Part shown: positions 4,563 through 40,406 of the stretch, in pieces
How positions within the stretch are numbered: the stretch's first letter is position 1
How the letters are laid out: each line of letters opens with the position of its first letter
IMG/VR virus record: IMGVR_UViG_3300045988_053499
Location: 1-40,569 of that record
Length of the DNA stretch: 40,569 bases
From: a virus
Strand: one strand, 5' to 3'
Notes under the pieces: generated by a model
Told to the model about the DNA's origin: nothing
Databases searched by the model: none
What the model saw: only the letters and a program-made list of their open reading frames with translations
Translations under genes and position numbers: made by a program

Positions 4563-4630
4563 AAAATCCCCCACTTTGCCTACAAAGTACCCCGCGTGGA
4601 ACGCAGGGCTTTGGCAAAGCAGGGGATTTT
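4563..4630. terminator. Long imperfect hairpin with an A-run and a T-run (bidirectional terminator-like)
   Basis: AAAATCCCC..CTTTGCC pairs with GGCAAAG..GGGGATTTT. Inner stem CCCCGCG/CGCAGGG. Confidence 0.45.
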
Positions 4631-18179: not shown

Positions 18180-18256
18180 TGGTGCCGCCAGTAGGATTTG
18201 AACCTACGACCTTCCGATTACAAGACGGCGGCTCTGCCAGATTGAGCTATAGCGGC
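18180..18256 (-). tRNA. trnT: tRNA-Thr (anticodon UGU), CCA encoded
   Basis: Manual cloverleaf: acceptor GCCGCTA/TGGCGGC, D arm GCTC/GAGC, anticodon loop CTTGTAA, T arm GTAGG-TTCAAAT-CCTAC. The anticodon stem has only 3 Watson-Crick pairs. Confidence 0.8.
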
Positions 18257-21372: not shown

Positions 21373-22764
21373 TCATTCCTGATGTGTGCTTTCATTTTCT
21401 TTGTCCTCATCGTCCTCGTCTGTGGTCTCCCGCGTTGCGCTCTCAGCCATCAGCGCAGCCTTTGCCTGCTCCTTCTGTTCTTGTGTAAGGTTCGGCAGCA
21501 ACTCTATTGCCATCTCGTTTCCGATGATTGTCGCTTCTGCAATCGCCATGTCTACTTGCTCCTTGGTGTTGGAGATGCGCACATGGGTGTACTGCGGCTT
21601 TGCGTCCGGCAGACCGGCGATCTTGAGCACCTGACGAACAAACTTGGTGATTTGCTGTTCAAAGTCGCGGGCGTTCTCGTCCAGCGGCTGATAGGCGGCT
21701 TCCAGATGGTCGTTGGTGCTGTTTGCGCTTACGCAATGTACATCCAGACCGCCGAAATCCTCATACAGGGAACTGTGCAACCGCTGCAGCAGGGTCTCCC
21801 GCGCCTGTGTGGGGATCTCCTGCGTGTAGGGCTGCACACTGCCGCCGTTGTCTCCGGCGTTGTCTACGTTGGCGGCGTGGTTGAACCGCAGCCGCTGCAT
21901 GAACTTGCGCAGATCCGCGTCATTCATGCCGCCGTAGTTGGAGATCAGCCAATACACTTGCGCACACTCGCGCAGGTCATCGCAAAAGCCGTTTACGATC
22001 AAGTCAATGTTGTCAATATAACCTTTGAGGTTGACAAGCGTGCTCTGCTTGGAGCTGCTTCCCCAAAGCGGCACAATGGGAAGTGTGCCGTACCCTTCAC
22101 CCTCCACGATCTCGTCCCCTGCGGGGGTGGTAGTCGTGGTGGTTTTGTAGGGCTGCTGTTCGCCGTCCTGATGTAGCAGGCGCTCGCCCTTGCTGTCCTC
22201 TGTGTAGCGGGTGTATCCGCTCTCATCGTACAGCACCGCGTGCATGGGCTTGTCCGGCTGCAAGCGCCAGAACCTGATACCCGCACGCATGGTGCCGTCC
22301 TTCTCATCGTACAGCGGCGCAAACTCGGTCAACTTGAACACGTCCAAGTGGTCGTTGTTCCAAAATCCAAAGCTTTCCCCGTGGATGCAGGCAAGGTAAC
22401 CCAGCCGGTAAAGCTGCTCGTCAAAGCTTTCGCCCAGCTGCGCTTTTACTTCGTCTGCGTCCGGCAAGGTGATGCCGTTTGCAAGACTATACGCCACACG
22501 TTGCACGTTGAGCCGGTGGAAGGAGTTGCTTTTCACGGTCTCCGGGCGGGCTCTCTTGGTGATGCCGTTGAGTTTGTAGTCGATATCCGCGATCGCGTCC
22601 AAAAAATCATCAACGCCGGTGTTGAGCTGCCTGTCGTACTTATCAGCCTTTTCAGCGGTACGCACTGGTGCGCTGTTGGCGTGCTCTGCGATAAAACTCT
22701 GCACAAAAGCGGTTTTTGCGGCAGGGTCGTTCTGCACCGCTTCAAGGTCTTGGTATGTTCTCAC
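21373..22764 (-). CDS. Portal protein
   Basis: 463-aa ORF after the terminase gene. GTG start 8 nt after AAGGAG. Acidic C-terminus. Confidence 0.85.
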   Translation of the reverse strand: MRTYQDLEAVQNDPAAKTAFVQSFIAEHANSAPVRTAEKADKYDRQLNTGVDDFLDAIADIDYKLNGITKRARPETVKSNSFHRLNVQRVAYSLANGITLPDADEVKAQLGESFDEQLYRLGYLACIHGESFGFWNNDHLDVFKLTEFAPLYDEKDGTMRAGIRFWRLQPDKPMHAVLYDESGYTRYTEDSKGERLLHQDGEQQPYKTTTTTTPAGDEIVEGEGYGTLPIVPLWGSSSKQSTLVNLKGYIDNIDLIVNGFCDDLRECAQVYWLISNYGGMNDADLRKFMQRLRFNHAANVDNAGDNGGSVQPYTQEIPTQARETLLQRLHSSLYEDFGGLDVHCVSANSTNDHLEAAYQPLDENARDFEQQITKFVRQVLKIAGLPDAKPQYTHVRISNTKEQVDMAIAEATIIGNEMAIELLPNLTQEQKEQAKAALMAESATRETTDEDDEDKENESTHQE

Positions 22765-22776
22765 TTGCTTCGCTCC

Positions 22777-24432
22777 TTATTTTCCGGGCTTGTGCCACAC
22801 AAGCTCCATGGCGTATCGTGTAGCGTCAATGTGATGGTTATCGTGGTCTGGGTATCCGGGCAGCGGATCGCCGTTCTTGTCCGCATCATACTCGTACTCG
22901 GTGAACTCCTTCAGAGTGTCCGGGCAGCGCGCCGGATCAATGACGATGGCGGTCAGGCTTTGCAGCCACTTCACGCCCTGCCCAACGCTGTTGGGGCCTT
23001 TTATAGCGGGCAAGCACTTAATTCCCCATGCAGTATAGTCGGTGCAGCTCTTTGGCTCGGCGCTGTCACCGGTCAGGCGCTCGCTCTCCGGGTGCTCCAT
23101 AACGTGCCGGTCTTGTAGCATCTTGAACGTATCCTCGTTGCGTGTGCGCCGCACGGTGATCTCGTCATAGATATACAGGGTCTTGCGGGCTGCGTCGTAA
23201 CTCATGCAGTTATAGGCAAAGGGGTCAGGATACCAGCCCCAGTCAATGCCGTGATACTTGCGCTCAAACCTTGCGGGGTCTATCTTTTCTGCCCGGATGT
23301 TGGTAAAGACTTCCTTGCCGCAGCCAGTCACCTCGCCAAGATACTCGTGCTTGTAGGCGATCAGGTTGCGTTTCTTTAGTTCTTCGGCATCATCCAGAAA
23401 TCGCTTGCCAAGCCACTCCTGCGGCACCATCGTGTAGTCGGAGTGCTGGATGATCTTGCGGTCGCGCACTTCCAGAGCATAACGGTTTGCCCAGTTACGG
23501 GGTGATGCAGGCGGGTTGAAGCTCTTGAACGTGAAAGAGAAATCTCCTCCACGCAGACAGGACTGTTCCACGTTGCGGATTTGTTCCTCTCCGTCATACT
23601 GGTCTAGCTCTTCAAACCATAGAATGCCGATGTATCCGCGCGGTAGTTTGATAGATTTAAGCTTGCCGGGGTCATCCAGACCGAAGAAGAGGATCTTCTG
23701 ACCGGTATTTTTGTTGGTCATCTCCATCGGGGAAACCGTACACTTCCACATTCCGGGTTCCAGCTGGTCAACTGCCCACTGCATCTGTGCATACACGGAT
23801 GTGCGCAGGGTATTGCCCACCTTGCGGATGCATACCGCGTTGCAATCCGGGTGCAATTGCAGAAGTTTGATAACGCCGATGCTGCAGAAGCTGGATTTTG
23901 TGGAGCCACGTCCACCCTTTTCCAGCGCTTCGTCTGCATCGCCTCGCATGATCTTCTGCCATGTCGGCAGGAATTGCGGGGCCAAAAGCTCGAACAGCCT
24001 GTTTTCGGAGACTGCCGGGCTTGCGCTTTCGTTTTCTTCTGTTTTTTCCTCTTTGTTGTCCCAGCCAAAGTTAAACTTCAGGCTGAATTGTGCTCCGTTC
24101 GTTCCGTCCCGGTCGAACAGCCTCTCTTCGGAGTATTTTTCGCACCGGGCTTTTGCGCGCGTAATCGTGTTTACAAATTCCTGCTTTCCTTGATATTCCA
24201 GCAACGATTTTCGCGACGCAAACCCCAAAGCCAACGCTAATCCTGTGACAGTGGGCGGACGCTGATGCAGATATATTTCATTTCCGTACTTATCCAGAAC
24301 CGGTGCTCCATTCGCGTCCTTCAAGAGCTCTCCTTCGCAGTCAGCAAAGTAAGCATCTATCTTTTCCTGCATTTCTGCGGAATTTTTATATTTCGGCGGT
24401 GCGCCTACCGGATTCTTTTTCTTGTAGGTCAT
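22777..24432 (-). CDS. Terminase, in-frame fusion of a small-subunit-like N-domain and a PBSX-type large subunit
   Basis: N-terminal 125 aa resemble TerS (PPKYKNSAEMQEKIDAYF..PTVTGLALALG..FSLKFNFGW). This is followed by TerL Walker A GGRGSTKS and the nuclease part, with no stop codon and no internal start. Confidence 0.8.
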   Translation of the reverse strand: MTYKKKNPVGAPPKYKNSAEMQEKIDAYFADCEGELLKDANGAPVLDKYGNEIYLHQRPPTVTGLALALGFASRKSLLEYQGKQEFVNTITRAKARCEKYSEERLFDRDGTNGAQFSLKFNFGWDNKEEKTEENESASPAVSENRLFELLAPQFLPTWQKIMRGDADEALEKGGRGSTKSSFCSIGVIKLLQLHPDCNAVCIRKVGNTLRTSVYAQMQWAVDQLEPGMWKCTVSPMEMTNKNTGQKILFFGLDDPGKLKSIKLPRGYIGILWFEELDQYDGEEQIRNVEQSCLRGGDFSFTFKSFNPPASPRNWANRYALEVRDRKIIQHSDYTMVPQEWLGKRFLDDAEELKKRNLIAYKHEYLGEVTGCGKEVFTNIRAEKIDPARFERKYHGIDWGWYPDPFAYNCMSYDAARKTLYIYDEITVRRTRNEDTFKMLQDRHVMEHPESERLTGDSAEPKSCTDYTAWGIKCLPAIKGPNSVGQGVKWLQSLTAIVIDPARCPDTLKEFTEYEYDADKNGDPLPGYPDHDNHHIDATRYAMELVWHKPGK

Positions 24433-24444
24433 TTCCACCACCTC

Positions 24445-25326
24445 TCATGTAAATGAATTTTTATACTGTTCGACAAATCGCTTTTGAACAAACAGCTTTT
24501 CAGTGTTAGAACCGCCTTTATTCCCAGTGCCCATAGAAGATTGCTTCTTTATGCTTGCAACTTCCAAACATTCATATGGCGCTTCATATTCGCTGACAAC
24601 CACCATGAACGGAACTTCCGAAAGCCACTTTTCAAACGATTCATGGTCAAAACCATGTTTATAGCCTGTGCAGTTTGTTTGTTTATAGGGGGGGTCTGCG
24701 TATACAACTGCATTTGATGGAATTTGCACATCCCTATAATCACTCTGCAAGCGTTCAAGATTCTGCAAGCGTTCAAGATTCTCTAGTCTTGCAAGGTGAT
24801 CTAAATCATAGAGCCTTTTATGCTTTACTTGATGTCCGATCCACTGTGAATAGAGTTTTTTATATTCACCGTTGTTTGGCTTGATGTCCTTTGAACTTCC
24901 GTCCGAATTGATTCCGAACTCACGCAAAAGCGATGTATCGCCAAACACTCTTGCGTAGTGCAAAGCCTTTTTCCACGGTTCAATCTCTTTTGAGTAGAGG
25001 TAATCCGTGCGATTATTTCCAAAGCTCCAGCAAAGCGAAACGTAAGGGTCGGATTCTTTCAGACGGTGAAAATCTTCACGGCTAATCCAACGCTTTTCAT
25101 TGGCGTACTTGCCATGAACGGCATTCATAAACAACTGCGGTGCATCGCCAATGTCATTTGCTACAACGCGATTCCATTTTCCGGACAGTAATGCAGCGTG
25201 CGTGACCGCACAGCCACCAGCAAACAGGTCAATCAGCGTGTCACCAGCAGGAAGATTAGAGATAACCCACTGTGCAATTTTGTTCTTGCTGCCACGATAC
25301 GGCACACCATATCTCACGGTTGGCAT
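24445..25326 (-). CDS. DNA N6-adenine methyltransferase (D12 class, Dam-like)
   Basis: YRGSKNKI, DLFAGGCAV (motif I) and DPPY (motif IV). Lower GC than its neighbours. Confidence 0.8.
   Translation of the reverse strand: MPTVRYGVPYRGSKNKIAQWVISNLPAGDTLIDLFAGGCAVTHAALLSGKWNRVVANDIGDAPQLFMNAVHGKYANEKRWISREDFHRLKESDPYVSLCWSFGNNRTDYLYSKEIEPWKKALHYARVFGDTSLLREFGINSDGSSKDIKPNNGEYKKLYSQWIGHQVKHKRLYDLDHLARLENLERLQNLERLQSDYRDVQIPSNAVVYADPPYKQTNCTGYKHGFDHESFEKWLSEVPFMVVVSEYEAPYECLEVASIKKQSSMGTGNKGGSNTEKLFVQKRFVEQYKNSFT
24745..24780. repeat. Perfect 18-bp tandem duplication inside the methyltransferase gene
   Basis: CTGCAAGCGTTCAAGATT x2, giving an in-frame NLERLQ duplication. Confidence 0.85.
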
Positions 25327-25338
25327 CTCCTTTCCTGC

Positions 25339-25365
25339 AAAACAAAAGCCGCCCACACGGACGGC
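25339..25365 (-). terminator. Intrinsic terminator at the end of the RNA array
   Basis: Stem GCCGTCC/GGGCGGC with loop GTGT, followed on the - strand by TTTTGTTTT. Confidence 0.65.
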
Positions 25366-25497
25366 AGAATATCAAAATAAGCAGCGCTCTGTACATTCAG
25401 TTTTTCGGACAACGTAAACGGTGGAGCGCCGCTGCATCTGGAACTTTCGCCGCCATATGCCCGGCTATCTGCGCAGCCCCCTCACAGGGTACGCAGC

Positions 25498-25573
25498 TGG
25501 CATTCCCGGCAGGGCTCAAACCTGCAGCCTGCGGTTTTGGAGACCGCTGTTCCATCGCTTGAACTACGGGAAT
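25498..25573 (-). tRNA. trnW: tRNA-Trp (anticodon CCA), CCA encoded
   Basis: Manual cloverleaf: ATTCCCG/CGGGAAT, GTTC/GAAC, GCGGT-CTCCAAA-ACCGC, GCAGG-TTTGAGC-CCTGC. The D-loop lacks GG and the T-loop has U at position 56. Confidence 0.8.
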
Positions 25574-25580
25574 ATAAAAA

Positions 25581-25649
25581 GCCGCCCTTGGAATCGAACC
25601 AGCCGTGTCTACACACACGCGCCGCGCTCCAAACTGCGCTCAGGCGGCC
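25581..25649 (-). ncRNA. tRNA-like RNA with an aberrant anticodon arm (no CCA)
   Basis: Acceptor GCCGCCT/GGGCGGC. D arm GCGC-AGTTTGGA-GCGC. GGTTCGATTCC box. The anticodon region is only CGTGT-GTGTAG-ACACG (6-nt loop). Confidence 0.45.
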
Positions 25650-25654
25650 ATATA

Positions 25655-25684
25655 AAAACAGCTCCGGTTCTCCGCCGGGGCTGT
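25655..25684 (-). terminator. Hairpin plus T-run inside the RNA array
   Basis: 9-bp stem CAGCCCCGG/CCGGAGCTG with loop CGGAGAA, followed on the - strand by TTTTTAT. Confidence 0.55.
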
Positions 25685-25796
25685 TGGTTGGCGCACATCC
25701 TGTCAGGAAAGCTACACCTTGGCAAGGATTCTAAGGCCTTTTCTCGGCACGGGAGGTTACACGTGCGGCCTTTCGGGTTGTCTAGTCCATGCGCCA
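25685..25796 (-). ncRNA. 112-nt structured RNA closed by an acceptor-like helix and ending in ACCA
   Basis: Perfect 7-bp helix TGGCGCA/TGCGCCA, then A-CCA. Starts 2 nt after the CCA of the upstream tRNA-like gene. Inner hairpins AAGGCC/GGCCTT and GCACG/CGTGC. Confidence 0.4.
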
Positions 25797-25798
25797 TA

Positions 25799-25875
25799 TG
25801 GTGTTCCGGGATGGATTTGAACCAACTACTTGCTGCTTCAATAGGCTGCTGCTCTACCAGTTGAGCTACCGGAAC
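25799..25875 (-). tRNA. tRNA-like gene, anticodon arm not foldable (identity undetermined or pseudo-tRNA)
   Basis: Acceptor GTTCCGG/CCGGAAC. D arm GCTC-AACTGGTA-GAGC. T arm GTTGG-TTCAAAT-CCATC. ACCA end. Both halves of the expected anticodon stem read GCAGC. Confidence 0.5.
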
Positions 25876-26075
25876 ATAGAAGCAGCCCGCGAAACGAGAG
25901 GAAGAAAAATGCCTGTCAAGCCTTTGGAGGAAAGCATTTTGGGGGGATTCGTTTCGGAGACTGCGTGGCAAGCGGCGCTCCGCTATGCGCGGTTCCGCTT
26001 ATAGGAAGCATACCATATACGTCTTTCAATCGCAATGTATGTGGCATACTTACATAGTATTAGCAAGGTGTAATG

Positions 26076-26573
26076 TCAGCACGTATCAAATTTGTCCCAA
26101 ATGCGTGCCAGAAATTTTGCACCTTCTCTGACGTACAGAGATACTCTGTTTTCTTCTGGCAAAAGCAGCGATTTTGCAATTTTAGCTTGCTTTTGTCCTT
26201 CGATGTAATATCCGTAAAGGCAGTCTTGCATCATTTTGCTGCTTTTTGTTTTTGAGATATAGCTGATTCTGTGAATTGCTTCAGCCTGCAAAGACTTTTT
26301 TTGCAGTTCCAGTGTTTTAAGCCTACGTTCTTCTACGTCTTTCTTTTCTGCGTAGCTTCCGACTTTGTCCCCGTAACCAGAGCCGCCGGGCATACCGCTT
26401 AGATTTGCCGTGCATCCAGTTGCATCATCTTTTAAACGCTTTATCGCAATCTGTACGCTCACAATCTCTGCGTCAATGTCACGTAGCTGCTGGAACCACG
26501 CCTTTACCTCGTGATAGTCCACATCGGTGCAGGTCTTTGGGTGTTCGCTTTCAGGTGTCCATGTGCGTGTCAT
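26076..26573 (-). CDS. Putative late-gene transcriptional regulator (DUF1492 / sigma region-4-like)
   Basis: 165-aa ORF, the last early gene before the packaging module. C-terminal HTH-like segment YYIEGQKQAKIAKSL..VSLYVREGAKFL. Confidence 0.5.
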   Translation of the reverse strand: MTRTWTPESEHPKTCTDVDYHEVKAWFQQLRDIDAEIVSVQIAIKRLKDDATGCTANLSGMPGGSGYGDKVGSYAEKKDVEERRLKTLELQKKSLQAEAIHRISYISKTKSSKMMQDCLYGYYIEGQKQAKIAKSLLLPEENRVSLYVREGAKFLARIWDKFDTC

Positions 26574-39108: not shown

Positions 39109-39273
39109 ATGCAGTGCATCAGATGCAAACGAGAGATACCGGAAGATGCTGCATTCTGCCCATGGTGCGGCAAGCGCCAGCCGGATACCGCACCGCCCGC
39201 GCAAAGAAAAAAGCGCCGCCGTCCCAAGGGCAGCGGCACAGTGTACTCTTGTGTATGGAGGTGGATTTTATGA
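39109..39273 (+). CDS. Zinc-ribbon small protein, 54 aa, coupled to the integrase
   Basis: MQCIRCKREIPEDAAFCPWCGKRQ, then RKKRRRPKGSGTVY. Its TGA overlaps the integrase ATG (ATGA). Confidence 0.5.
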   Translation: MQCIRCKREIPEDAAFCPWCGKRQPDTAPPAQRKKRRRPKGSGTVYSCVWRWIL

Positions 39274-40406
39274 AAAAACGGGTCAACACGGCATTTTGGG
39301 TGGAAAAGGAAAAGCGCTGGTGCATCGCGGTTCAGAAGAACGGCACCCGCAAGCGGTTTTACAGCAGTACGCCGGGCCGAACAGGACAACGGGAAGCAAA
39401 CGCAAAAGCGGATGCATGGCTTGATGATAGCATCAGAGACGGAAAAAAGAAAGTCAGCGTCCTTTATTCGGAGTGGGTGGAAGAACTGAAGCTGACTTGC
39501 GGGACGTCCTATGTGACACAATGCCAGCGTTATGGGGACTGCTATATCCTGCCGACCTGTGGGAATATCCGCATTGACGAGCTGACCGAGGGCGATCTTC
39601 AAAAGGCCATTGACGTTTCGTTCCGGAAGCGCTCACAGAAAAAGAACCAGCGCAAGCCCATCTCAAACCAGCCGTTGAGCCGAAAGACGCTTATGACGAT
39701 CCGGGCTGCGGAAACCGCCTTTGTCAAGTGGTGCAGGAAAAACCGGTATACAACGCTCCACCCCGACCTGTCTATCCCGAAGAATGCCAGGATGGGTAAA
39801 CGTACGATCTTGCAGCCCACCGCCCTAAAGGTTCTGTTTAGCGTAGACACCCGCACCTACTATGGGAAGCCGGTATTTGATGAATATATCTACGCCTACC
39901 GCTTTGCAGTTGCGACCGGCCTGCGCCCCGGGGAGCTGATTGGTCTCTGGTATGGTGACATCAAGGGGAACACGGTCAACCTTCGGCGCAGCATCAATGT
40001 GCACCGGGAGCAGACCACCGGAAAGAATGAAAACGCCATCCGCTCTTTTGACATGGGCAAGGAAGCACGGGATGCCTATGAGGCGCAGGTACAGCTCCTA
40101 AAGTCTCAAGGCATACTGCTAAACTACAATACGCCGCTATTTCAAATTCCGTCAGAGCATACGCTCTATCGCCGCTGGGAATCGTATCAGGAAGCAAACG
40201 GGCTTGAGCCGAAAGTCTCACTTTACGAGCTTCGGCACACCTTTGTCAGCGTTGAATCAAGCGTCCTGACTGACAGCCAGCTAAAAATGCTGGTTGGTCA
40301 CAGCAAGAACATGGACACTTCCGGCGTGTACCATCATGAATTGCAGGGCCAGCGAGAAGATTTGGCAGCTGCAACGACCGCTGCATTTAGGAAGGCTCAA
40401 GGGTGA
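39270..40406 (+). CDS. int: Tyrosine recombinase / phage integrase
   Basis: ATG lies 5 nt after GGAGGTGG. Arm-binding-like N-terminus. C-terminal LRHTF..GHS...T..Y catalytic pattern. Adjacent to the att repeat. Confidence 0.9.
   Translation: MKKRVNTAFWVEKEKRWCIAVQKNGTRKRFYSSTPGRTGQREANAKADAWLDDSIRDGKKKVSVLYSEWVEELKLTCGTSYVTQCQRYGDCYILPTCGNIRIDELTEGDLQKAIDVSFRKRSQKKNQRKPISNQPLSRKTLMTIRAAETAFVKWCRKNRYTTLHPDLSIPKNARMGKRTILQPTALKVLFSVDTRTYYGKPVFDEYIYAYRFAVATGLRPGELIGLWYGDIKGNTVNLRRSINVHREQTTGKNENAIRSFDMGKEARDAYEAQVQLLKSQGILLNYNTPLFQIPSEHTLYRRWESYQEANGLEPKVSLYELRHTFVSVESSVLTDSQLKMLVGHSKNMDTSGVYHHELQGQREDLAAATTAAFRKAQG

Follow-up and report, generated by a model that had tools for sequence, protein, structure and literature searches.

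A gene-free locus of about 720 nt on the - strand of the virus record IMGVR_UViG_3300045988_053499, which we analyzed over its positions 1 to 40,569 (the window), encodes a tightly packed array of tRNA-derived RNAs. Its most widely conserved member, a 112-nt element designated E2, carries the core of the anti-Shine-Dalgarno (anti-SD) sequence in a loop that is predicted to be unpaired. Judged from sequence comparisons, the array appears to be a conserved and apparently undescribed RNA locus rather than a set of decayed tRNA genes, because it recurs in more than 240 IMG/VR loci or contigs. We tentatively favor, with somewhat less than even confidence, the interpretation that it is a noncoding RNA operon at the boundary of the late genes, assembled from tRNA-derived parts in which the tRNA body would serve as a scaffold and a replaced arm as a display, with E2 acting as an anti-SD RNA late in infection. 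An initial annotation of the DNA had recognized the core of the locus (25421-25875), and its coordinates, - strand orientation and dense packing agree with the sequence; the whole feature is larger, adding a leader (25882-26000), E6 (25381-25434) and a terminator (25341-25365). The feature to which we give most weight, the invariant exposed anti-SD motif of E2, was not part of that annotation. In the 5′ to 3′ order of the array, the elements of the window are:

25970..26000, - strand: HL1, leader hairpin (AAGCGG..CCGCUU), identified by folding and kept in all array lineages
25882..25964, - strand: HL2, leader hairpin with a long stem, GCAGUCU-CCGAAACGA opposite UCGUUUCG-CGGGCUGC, the 3′ strand of which stops 6 nt before E1
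25799..25875, - strand: E1, tRNA-shaped RNA with an 8-nt anticodon loop, CUAUUGAA, and an encoded ACCA (ARAGORN, 'tRNA-???(attg)'; Rfam tRNA)
25685..25796, - strand: E2 (type A), 112-nt cloverleaf-like tRNA-derived RNA by predicted fold, with P1 UGGCGCA/UGCGCCA and the tail A-CCA
25752..25758, - strand: AACCUCC in the P3 loop of E2, the anti-SD core, predicted unpaired
25650..25684, - strand: T1, intrinsic-terminator-like hairpin CAGCCCCGG/CCGGAGCUG followed by U5 (dG -13.2, z -3.1)
25581..25649, - strand: E3, tRNA-like RNA without a decoding arm and without CCA, followed by a U-run
25498..25573, - strand: tRNA-Trp(CCA), canonical, with an encoded CCA (ARAGORN; Rfam tRNA model, 57.3 bits)
25469..25496, - strand: E5a, variable hairpin directly 3′ of tRNA-Trp (minimum free energy fold)
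25435..25465, - strand: E5b, H-type pseudoknot with S1 GCCG/CGGC, L1 GG, S2 CAUAUGG/CCAGAUG and L3 GAAAGUU
25381..25434, - strand: E6, long hairpin GCAGCGGCGCUC..GAGCGCUGC followed by UUAUUUU (dG -24.1, z -3.6)
25341..25365, - strand: T3, final intrinsic terminator before the first downstream gene (terminator scan; fold z -3.7)

Relatives of the array were collected from IMG/VR. A search with a 14-mer of E2 matched at least 119 stretches, 84 of those listed having the array, and E1-seeded and generic E2-signature scans raised the total to at least 241 loci, with 90 unique E2 sequences among the matches listed. The counts given below for the E1 slot, E2, E3, tRNA-Trp and E5 in relatives are all drawn from the matches listed in these scans.

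E2 sequences fall into eight types (A-H) of 112-145 nt that are barely alignable beyond short landmarks, yet independent minimum free energy folds of the type representatives gave one predicted topology. The terminal helix P1 has 7-8 bp (UGRCGCA(U)/(G)UGCGYCA); for the window copy, the length of 112 nt, the closing helix UGGCGCA/UGCGCCA and the ACCA end are present just as initially annotated. After P1 come U8 and a small hairpin resembling a D arm, in which type G has a compensatory change (GGGG/CCCC to GGGA/UCCC). The P2-P3 arm occupies the position of the anticodon arm, and P4 (RAAUCC...GGAU) encloses a variable P5 and abuts the 3′ strand of P1, the position of a T arm. E2 is thus modeled as a cloverleaf with a predicted acceptor/T-like coaxial stack. 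Within types A and B, 18 pairs are 100% paired, two of them with compensatory changes (in P1 and P4). A covariance model built from types A and B alone and searched against types C-H found all of these other types at full length (20-44 bits). The scores with this model and the motif sequence of each type are:

Types A and B: motif UAACCUCCC
Type C: about 31 bits; motif CAACCUCCG
Type D: 30.8 bits; motif AAACCUCCG
Type E: 42.7 and 40.3 bits; motif UCCCUCCUUCU
Type F: 37.6 bits; motif CGACCUCCA
Type G: 20.4 bits; motif AACACCUCCUUUCUGG
Type H: 43.9 bits; motif GAACCUCCUUUU

In the covariance-model alignment all six pairs of P2 (6/6) are changed on both sides; this alignment was shaped by the model itself, and since it also includes L157, probably a false positive, and chance matches confined to the loop, we count only P2 as clean. 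A single MAFFT alignment of all E2 types, in which P2 and P3 were out of register, was replaced by it.

The one sequence feature common to all eight types is (A)CCUCC. CCUCC, which is the core of the anti-SD sequence, occurs in 84 of the 90 unique E2 sequences and in 8/8 types, located in the loop of the P2-P3 arm with a predicted probability of being unpaired of 0.7-1.0 in 7/8 types. The identity extends further in type G, which matches CACCUCCUUUCU, which we take to be the Firmicute-type 16S rRNA tail, over 12 nt (0.05% of shuffles), and in type H, which matches it over 9 nt (0.25% of shuffles). Each type then has its own strong hairpin and U-run, and these terminators are unrelated among the eight types. 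No alternative pairing between E2 and its terminator was found in any of the eight types, nor do the terminators overlap P1, and for want of such alternative pairing E2 looks like a small RNA (sRNA) gene and not a riboswitch. E2 combines a terminator of its own with a conserved, C-rich motif that is complementary to GGAGG and predicted to be exposed, as would be expected of an sRNA whose seed is anti-SD. Comparison of E2 with Rfam gave no match, including at relaxed thresholds. Two other readings of E2 were dropped: an alanine identity (G3:U70), which is neither conserved nor correlated and in which G3:U70 is merely an intermediate of G-C and A-U, and a T-box-like UGGN, which is likewise not conserved or correlated.

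The terminators raise the possibility that the array works in cis, as a leader of the late operon in which attenuation or antitermination gates the packaging genes, the tRNA likeness being incidental or serving leader removal; lambda pR'-6S-tR' and HK022 put are analogues. Several observations are consistent with this idea. In every relative the array separates a phrog_36 regulator from the terminase genes, and its 3-4 intrinsic terminators are placed after E2, after E6 and at the end of the array. A GC-rich hairpin followed directly by a U-run, the hallmark of such terminators, is present in both T1 and T3. T1 corresponds to the hairpin with a U-run that was initially annotated after E2, and its position (25650-25684) and stability bear out that assignment; it has compensatory changes among relatives, and its 7-nt loop is found in both orientations (CGGAGAA, UUCUCCG) on an unchanged stem (e.g. 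L108, L104, L078, L042, L029, L119), which suggests that structure alone matters. At the position of E6, relatives have the same or a simpler hairpin with a U-run, and T3 is kept in them as ACCGUUCGG-AUUUU-CCGGGCGGU-U5. Because only ∼20-40 nt separate the last terminator from the ribosome-binding site (RBS) of the first late gene, late transcription probably must read through it, and in types E and H the array consists of E2 and its terminator only, directly before that gene. The leader hairpins HL1 and HL2 are also conserved: HL1 is kept even in relatives whose regulator is 47-50% identical, the HL1/HL2 region folds with a dG of -46.4 (z -3.8), and the HL2 stem covaries in L172-type loci (CGAAACG/CGUUUCG versus CAAAG/CUUUG). 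However, eight unrelated terminators that are clear of P1, with no alternative pairing to E2, argue against a riboswitch-like mechanism; discrete released RNAs are indicated by the T boxes, by the closure of the terminal helices and by the presence of a genuine tRNA; and the anti-SD motif has no obvious role in antitermination. We consider a cis-acting leader to be quite unlikely as the explanation of the array.

In L004, but in no other of ∼130 further leaders, the ∼45-nt interior of HL2, which is bounded by the inverted repeat CAAAACGG/CCGUUUUG, is inverted. A candidate ZMP/ZTP riboswitch at 25344-25435 (20.2 bits versus 39, E 0.67) was rejected; it coincides with E6 plus T3 and is a plain terminator in relatives. 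No model of the Rfam pseudoknot riboswitches and ribozymes (preQ1, SAM-II, ZTP, pistol and others) matched E5/E6 above threshold. Some relatives have a further element, E7, that is absent from the window (L001:1366-1501, L166:3199-3334 and others): matches of 136-155 nt to the tRNA model (43-50 bits) with A33, an anticodon loop of CAUUUAA or GAGUUAA, and a variable arm enlarged by an insertion of 65-85 nt that differs between loci.

The element upstream of E2 shows the same separation of a conserved tRNA body from a variable decoding region. E1 scores 50.9 bits with the Rfam tRNA model (RF00005; gathering threshold 29), consistent with a cloverleaf, and its acceptor stem is perfect and its D and T loops are canonical, yet ARAGORN reports it as 'tRNA-???' with a 4-base anticodon. 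The 7-nt loop with U33 and the full stem pairing of a canonical tRNA are missing: the loop has 8 nt, and A.A and U.U mismatches are present. The initial annotation described the two GCAGC halves of its anticodon stem as direct rather than complementary, a description that does not hold, given that in antiparallel orientation they pair at 4 of 5 positions (G-C, C-G, A.A, G-C, C-G). The perfect acceptor stem and the ACCA end were correctly recognized, but the T stem, taken as intact, contains the U.U mismatch, and the true oddities of E1 are its 8-nt loop and the A.A and U.U mismatches. The window form was found at 96-100% identity in 20 further contigs in one scan and in ∼30 loci in total. It is one of at least seven interchangeable forms that occupy the E1 slot in 133 loci:

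8-nt-loop tRNA, as in the window: 30 loci
76-nt form with a 10-nt loop: 46 loci
73-nt form: 33 loci
A33-containing tRNA whose variable region has an insertion of 65-85 nt: 13 loci (Rfam, 43-50 bits)
∼100-nt form containing CACCUCCC
58-nt form (form VI) with little beyond an acceptor stem and a T arm
One further form, at the single locus L174

Every form begins directly 3′ of a conserved ..GCUGCUUCUAU and has a 7-bp terminal helix, a T arm adjoining the 3′ strand of that helix, and N-C-C; the base after NCC (position 76) is often G and not A. Compensatory changes occur within the forms (e.g. CCUGUC/GACAGG to CUUGUC/GACAAG in form I). Judging from the sequences, the slot appears to conserve the features recognized by RNase P, RNase Z and the CCA-adding enzyme, not those recognized by the ribosome. 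The acceptor/T-arm/NCC pattern matches the dependence of RNase P on the RCCA motif (PMC12710915).

One could suppose instead that E1 is a working decoder, a quadruplet or +1-frameshift-suppressor tRNA (anticodon AUUG or UUGA) needed by some phage gene. Its Rfam score, canonical D and T loops, perfect acceptor stem and encoded CCA would fit such a role, as would the 96-100% conservation in ∼30 loci, and quadruplets can be decoded by tRNAs with 8-nt loops (PMC9094753). Against this stand the A.A mismatch in the anticodon stem and the U.U mismatch in the T stem, the variation of loop position 2, the U33 equivalent, between U and C among relatives, and the use of the same slot by at least six other forms that no tRNA model accepts and by a recombinant with non-complementary acceptor strands. 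We regard a decoding role for E1 as very unlikely.

E3 goes further, in that the decoding arm is gone. As initially annotated, its acceptor stem (6-7 bp) is accompanied by a D arm that contains GG and by a GGUUCGAUUCC T box, here on a 3-bp stem; a hairpin with a 6-nt loop (CGUGU-GUGUAG-ACACG) stands at the position of the anticodon arm, and there is no CCA. E3 was found in 123 loci (31 unique sequences). The 13 pairs shared in acceptor, D and T helices are 99.5% paired with wobble changes only, and three or four unrelated sequences, with loops of 6 or 9 nt, serve as the arm hairpin, one pair of them being compensated (CGUGU/ACACG to CGUGG/CCACG). In Rfam, E3 matched only tRNA-Sec and below threshold (18.6 bits versus 47, E 0.77), and the Rfam tRNA model gave no match to E2, E3 or E5 at E<=10. 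Apart from E1 and tRNA-Trp, no part of the gene-free locus exceeded the threshold of an Rfam family.

The tRNA-Trp gene is the only normal tRNA of the array, as the initial annotation had it: ARAGORN and Rfam accept it as canonical, with a cloverleaf, a 7-nt loop bearing the CCA anticodon and an intact D/T elbow, and no other element is canonical. Had the finders folded every element as a standard tRNA, the initial annotation would have failed; they did not, and ARAGORN, which also searched for tmRNA, found none in the region. The absence of G19 and the presence of U56, which had been listed as departures from the canonical fold, were correctly seen and are not defects, as they form a compensated A19:U56 pair. 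Among 116 copies, 38 have A19/U56, 77 have G19/C56 and one has G19/U56, and the compensation of this tertiary pair indicates that tRNA-Trp is under selection for an intact elbow.

Directly 3′ of tRNA-Trp, the hairpin E5a is replaced by other hairpins in relatives and is followed by the 31-nt pseudoknot E5b (S1 GCGG/CCGC, L1 GG, S2 CAUCCRG/CYGGAUG and L3 GAAAGUU, with degenerate letters). The 35 unique E5b sequences, from 105 copies, are 95.8% paired, and three pairs are changed on both sides (19 cells), including a G-C to C-G exchange in S1. None of 500 shuffles attained this score, and slid controls were 28-45% paired. The closing helix GCUGCGU/AUGCAGC initially proposed for this part of the array conflicts with the covarying S2 stem, which it overlaps, and relatives do not keep it; we have abandoned it.

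Across relatives the order of the array is HL1 and HL2, the E1 slot, E2, a terminator, E3, tRNA-Trp, E5, E6, an optional E7, a terminator and the first late gene, and it lies downstream of every regulator homologue found with enough 3′ sequence, down to 47% identity. Matching sequence is also present in 3 GenBank fragments from human faeces. A blastn search of the whole region against 50,697 phage records returned only three uncultured faecal phage fragments and tRNA-Trp genes. We found no Rfam family or published description of the array, and parts of it may be included in a catalogue of ∼10,000 candidate viral RNAs (PMC10690425). Each element form is 96-100% conserved over many contigs, and the blocks recombine, with near-identical regulators preceding differing E1 and E2 types. 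The E1 slot of L192 (L192:3214-3286) is a chimera of the 5′ half of the window E1 and the 3′ half of another tRNA, and its acceptor strands are non-complementary; the 3′ half is that of the near-canonical tRNA(CAU) that occupies the slot in L187 (L187:3213-3285), a locus without E2 and E3. This chimera points to recombination through shared D-arm sequence.

Together, hundreds of contigs and compensatory changes make the array more than a product of chance. They also bear on whether the non-canonical elements are functionless, decaying pseudo-tRNAs, as the initial annotation had allowed. The mismatches of E1, the weak T stem of E3 and the broken chimeric copy in L192 are what decay might produce, but each form is kept over tens of contigs, at 96-100% identity. 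E2, E5, form I of E1 and the hairpin of E3 have compensatory changes, the tertiary pair of tRNA-Trp covaries, and an invariant motif is retained through eight diverged E2 types. This conservation and covariation of the non-canonical elements in homologous phages, which had been named as a check with the initial annotation, largely refutes decay, and we consider it extremely improbable.

Arms-race loci typically exchange discrete, internally conserved types, as is seen here for the E1 slot, E2, the E3 arm and the E5 hairpin, and this suggests another explanation, that the RNAs counter host defence as tRNA-shaped decoys, sponges or resistant substitutes against tRNA-attacking effectors, whether anticodon nucleases, acceptor-stem nucleases or modifiers of the acceptor end, with tRNA-Trp replacing a targeted host tRNA. 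Phage tRNAs with altered anticodon loops have been proposed to evade anticodon nucleases (PMC10264068), and tRNA-Trp is among the tRNAs commonest in phages; 432 mycobacteriophage records matched our blastn query, those listed aligning over the tRNA-Trp segment. The conserved acceptor/T module and NCC would also be expected of a sponge for acceptor-end effectors. However, conservation is lowest in the anticodon-loop region, which several forms lack altogether (form VI consists of an acceptor stem and a T arm), making anticodon-nuclease decoys unlikely, and E2 has as its invariant motif an anti-SD sequence instead of an anticodon. The locus was not linked to any gene of defence or anti-defence, in an analysis that did not include padloc or the host. 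Although we judge an anti-defence role of the array to be unlikely, and disfavor the decoys or substitutes against anticodon nucleases that were initially suggested for the non-canonical elements, tRNA-Trp itself is a possible anticodon-nuclease substitute.

Of the roles initially listed, small-RNA scaffolds processed by RNase P and RNase Z fit the comparative data best, in that the acceptor helix, the stacked T-arm-like helix and NCC are kept. The operon interpretation builds on observed properties of the locus, namely its anatomy, conservation, covariation, cassette exchange, anti-SD motif and terminators. The array would be transcribed from a late promoter, cleaved by RNase P and RNase Z and then provided with CCA, and tRNA-Trp(CCA) would be the one working tRNA of the operon. 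E1, E2 and E3, as well as E7 in relatives, appear to keep what the maturation enzymes of tRNA (RNase P, RNase Z and the CCA-adding enzyme) read, namely a terminal helix of 7 bp with a T-arm-like helix stacked on it, then a discriminator base and, in many cases, CC. They are presumably not decoders because the anticodon arm is deformed, replaced or greatly expanded. The tRNA body would act as a natural scaffold, supplying defined ends and stability, and the replaced arm would display a functional sequence. In E2, (A)CCUCC(UUU) would be presented in an exposed loop of an RNA that stops at its own intrinsic terminator, and most probably this RNA pairs with SD sequences late in infection, which would shut off or retune translation. 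Alternatively, E2 might mimic the 3′ tail of 16S rRNA towards some factor. The narrower proposal that E2 represents a new class of phage RNA, a tRNA-derived cloverleaf presenting an anti-SD that captures SD sites or impersonates the 16S tail to a host factor or toxin, within a cassette system whose natural tRNA scaffolds would show exchangeable functional loops, is one about which we are considerably more doubtful.

A number of points weigh against the proposed operon and the role of E2 in it. The proposed cleavage by RNase P and RNase Z is deduced from shape, and E2 could be recognizable by RNase P alone, the scaffold upstream of it being not obviously needed. The 3′ tail ACCA occurs in type A only, other types having AACA, ACAG, ACUC or AUCA, and E3 has a T stem of just 3 bp and lacks G1 in many copies. 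The product of the per-type chances of CCUCC in shuffles, 2e-5, overstates independence because the eight E2 types are homologous; the tail CACCUCCUUUCU may not be that of the actual host; and in type C the CCUCC can pair with a downstream CGGAGG, its probability of being unpaired falling to about 0.37. No specific target of E2 was found in the phage genome, as the extended complement GGAGGUU is not enriched (3 matches versus 3.7 expected). Finally, a plain SD sponge would hit the phage's own mRNAs too.

The carrier is a temperate siphophage or prophage of a gut Firmicute. Besides the genes below, the window encodes a helix-turn-helix repressor-like protein and a GH25 lysin, and its TerL has an N-terminal gp3 domain.

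39114-40406: integrase
26076..26573, - strand: 165-aa phrog_36 'transcriptional regulator', upstream of the array
24445..25326, - strand: D12-class N6-adenine methyltransferase, downstream of the array, with a probable ATG at 25326 (start inferred from sequence)
22777-24441: TerL, after the methyltransferase
21373-22764: portal, after TerL

For the upstream regulator phrog_36 was the sole match, with none in Pfam, NCBIfam or PDB; by our own reading it may resemble sigma region 4. A sigma-70 promoter scan of the region found none, and TTGCGA-17-TGgTATGCT, noticed by eye, is a weak candidate. The open reading frame of the methyltransferase as listed begins at GTG 25356, within T3, and the ATG at 25326 with the RBS GGAAAGGAG is the likelier start. 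In relatives the first late gene has a strongly conserved RBS, AGAGAGGUGGUG, and a GUG start, and its identity varies (terS-like, ParB-like or, as in the window, a methyltransferase).

The same prophage was found in a 116.8-kb gut-metagenome contig where host smpB, recR, ybaB and dnaX adjoin it (L197:12495-16056). Since the RecR of this flank shares 84-86% identity with Faecalibacterium sp. proteins named RecR, the host is a Faecalibacterium-like gut Firmicute. The position beside smpB suggests an attachment site in ssrA (tmRNA) or a tRNA. When GTDB genomes were scanned with the E2 loop pattern, 23/23 matches were chance occurrences, in coding DNA or unrelated hairpins. Two other RNAs lie elsewhere in the window: a full-length DUF3800-VIII RNA downstream of the lysis region (4565-4628, - strand; Rfam RF03075, 80.3 bits, E 5.5e-14), and a lone canonical tRNA-Thr(UGU) in the structural-gene module (18180-18256, - strand), which is preceded by a terminator hairpin and by UUUUUUUAU, that is, (U)nUAU as before the 5′ ends of array elements.

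The array provides a large natural comparative series (more than 240 contigs, eight E2 types and at least seven E1 forms) that reveals which parts are under selection, namely the acceptor/T module and the displayed loop. E2, the anticodon-less E3 and the E5 pseudoknot are candidate RNA families absent from Rfam 15. If E2 binds SD sites or mimics the 16S tail, it would provide phages of Faecalibacterium with an RNA route to translational takeover; this is a dominant, medically relevant gut genus.

The systems closest in kind are RNAs C and D of the T4 tRNA cluster, the herpesviral TMERs and engineered tRNA scaffolds, none of them homologous to the array. T4 species 1 (RNA C) and species 2 (RNA D) are small stable RNAs of a phage tRNA cluster that are co-transcribed with tRNAs and matured by tRNA enzymes; they have a tRNA-like terminal helix and a CCA end and no assigned function. 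Like the array, they are encoded within a phage tRNA cluster and have an acceptor-like terminal helix, but the blastn comparison with 50,697 phage records showed no sequence homology, and the array, unlike RNAs C and D, consists of cassettes that can be exchanged, lies at the boundary of the late genes in a temperate phage of a Firmicute, and includes E2 with its anti-SD motif and terminator. TMERs of murine gammaherpesvirus 68 are tandem viral tRNA-like elements fused to hairpin RNAs; they are not aminoacylated, and their tRNA-like part is a tRNase Z processing handle for the linked small RNAs. The likeness lies in a viral tandem array of tRNA-like elements that are, or in our array would be, processing handles, whereas TMERs are products of eukaryotic pol III with a microRNA cargo downstream and the cargo here would lie inside the tRNA-like body, in the anticodon or variable arm. 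In engineered tRNA scaffolds, foreign RNA takes the place of the anticodon arm for stable production of recombinant RNA in bacteria. E2, E3 and E7 have the same architecture, in which acceptor, D and T parts secure processing and stability; those scaffolds are man-made and the array is natural. To our knowledge no natural evolving family of this design has been described, and the array, if our interpretation is correct, would be its natural counterpart.

Phage tRNAs that evade anticodon nucleases (PMC10264068) share with the array non-standard anticodon loops and the frequent presence of tRNA-Trp, but they stay decoders with 7-nt loops, whereas the loops of the array have 6, 8, 9 or 10 nt or are absent, and are variable. 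YrlA and bacterial Y RNAs (PMC4201824) resemble E2 in size (∼110 nt), a tRNA-like module, a closing stem and in being phage-encoded in some cases. However, the YrlA model (RF02553) had no match in the window, no Ro/Rsr context was seen, and in L001 it reached 19.4 bits (gathering threshold 69) over E3 and tRNA-Trp, not E2.

In logic, E2 resembles sRNAs with C-rich seeds and T4 RegB, without homology to either. Gram-positive sRNAs of the RNAIII/RsaE type expose a C-rich seed loop on a GC stem, and RegB is a protein nuclease that targets GGAG in SD sites. Both act on SD sequences to reprogram translation, as E2 might; unlike the RNAIII/RsaE-type sRNAs, E2 has a tRNA-derived body, and up to 12 nt of its motif are identical to the 16S anti-SD itself. 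We conclude that the array belongs in kind with the stable tRNA-like RNAs of phage tRNA clusters, and that its unexpected feature is the display of an anti-SD sequence.

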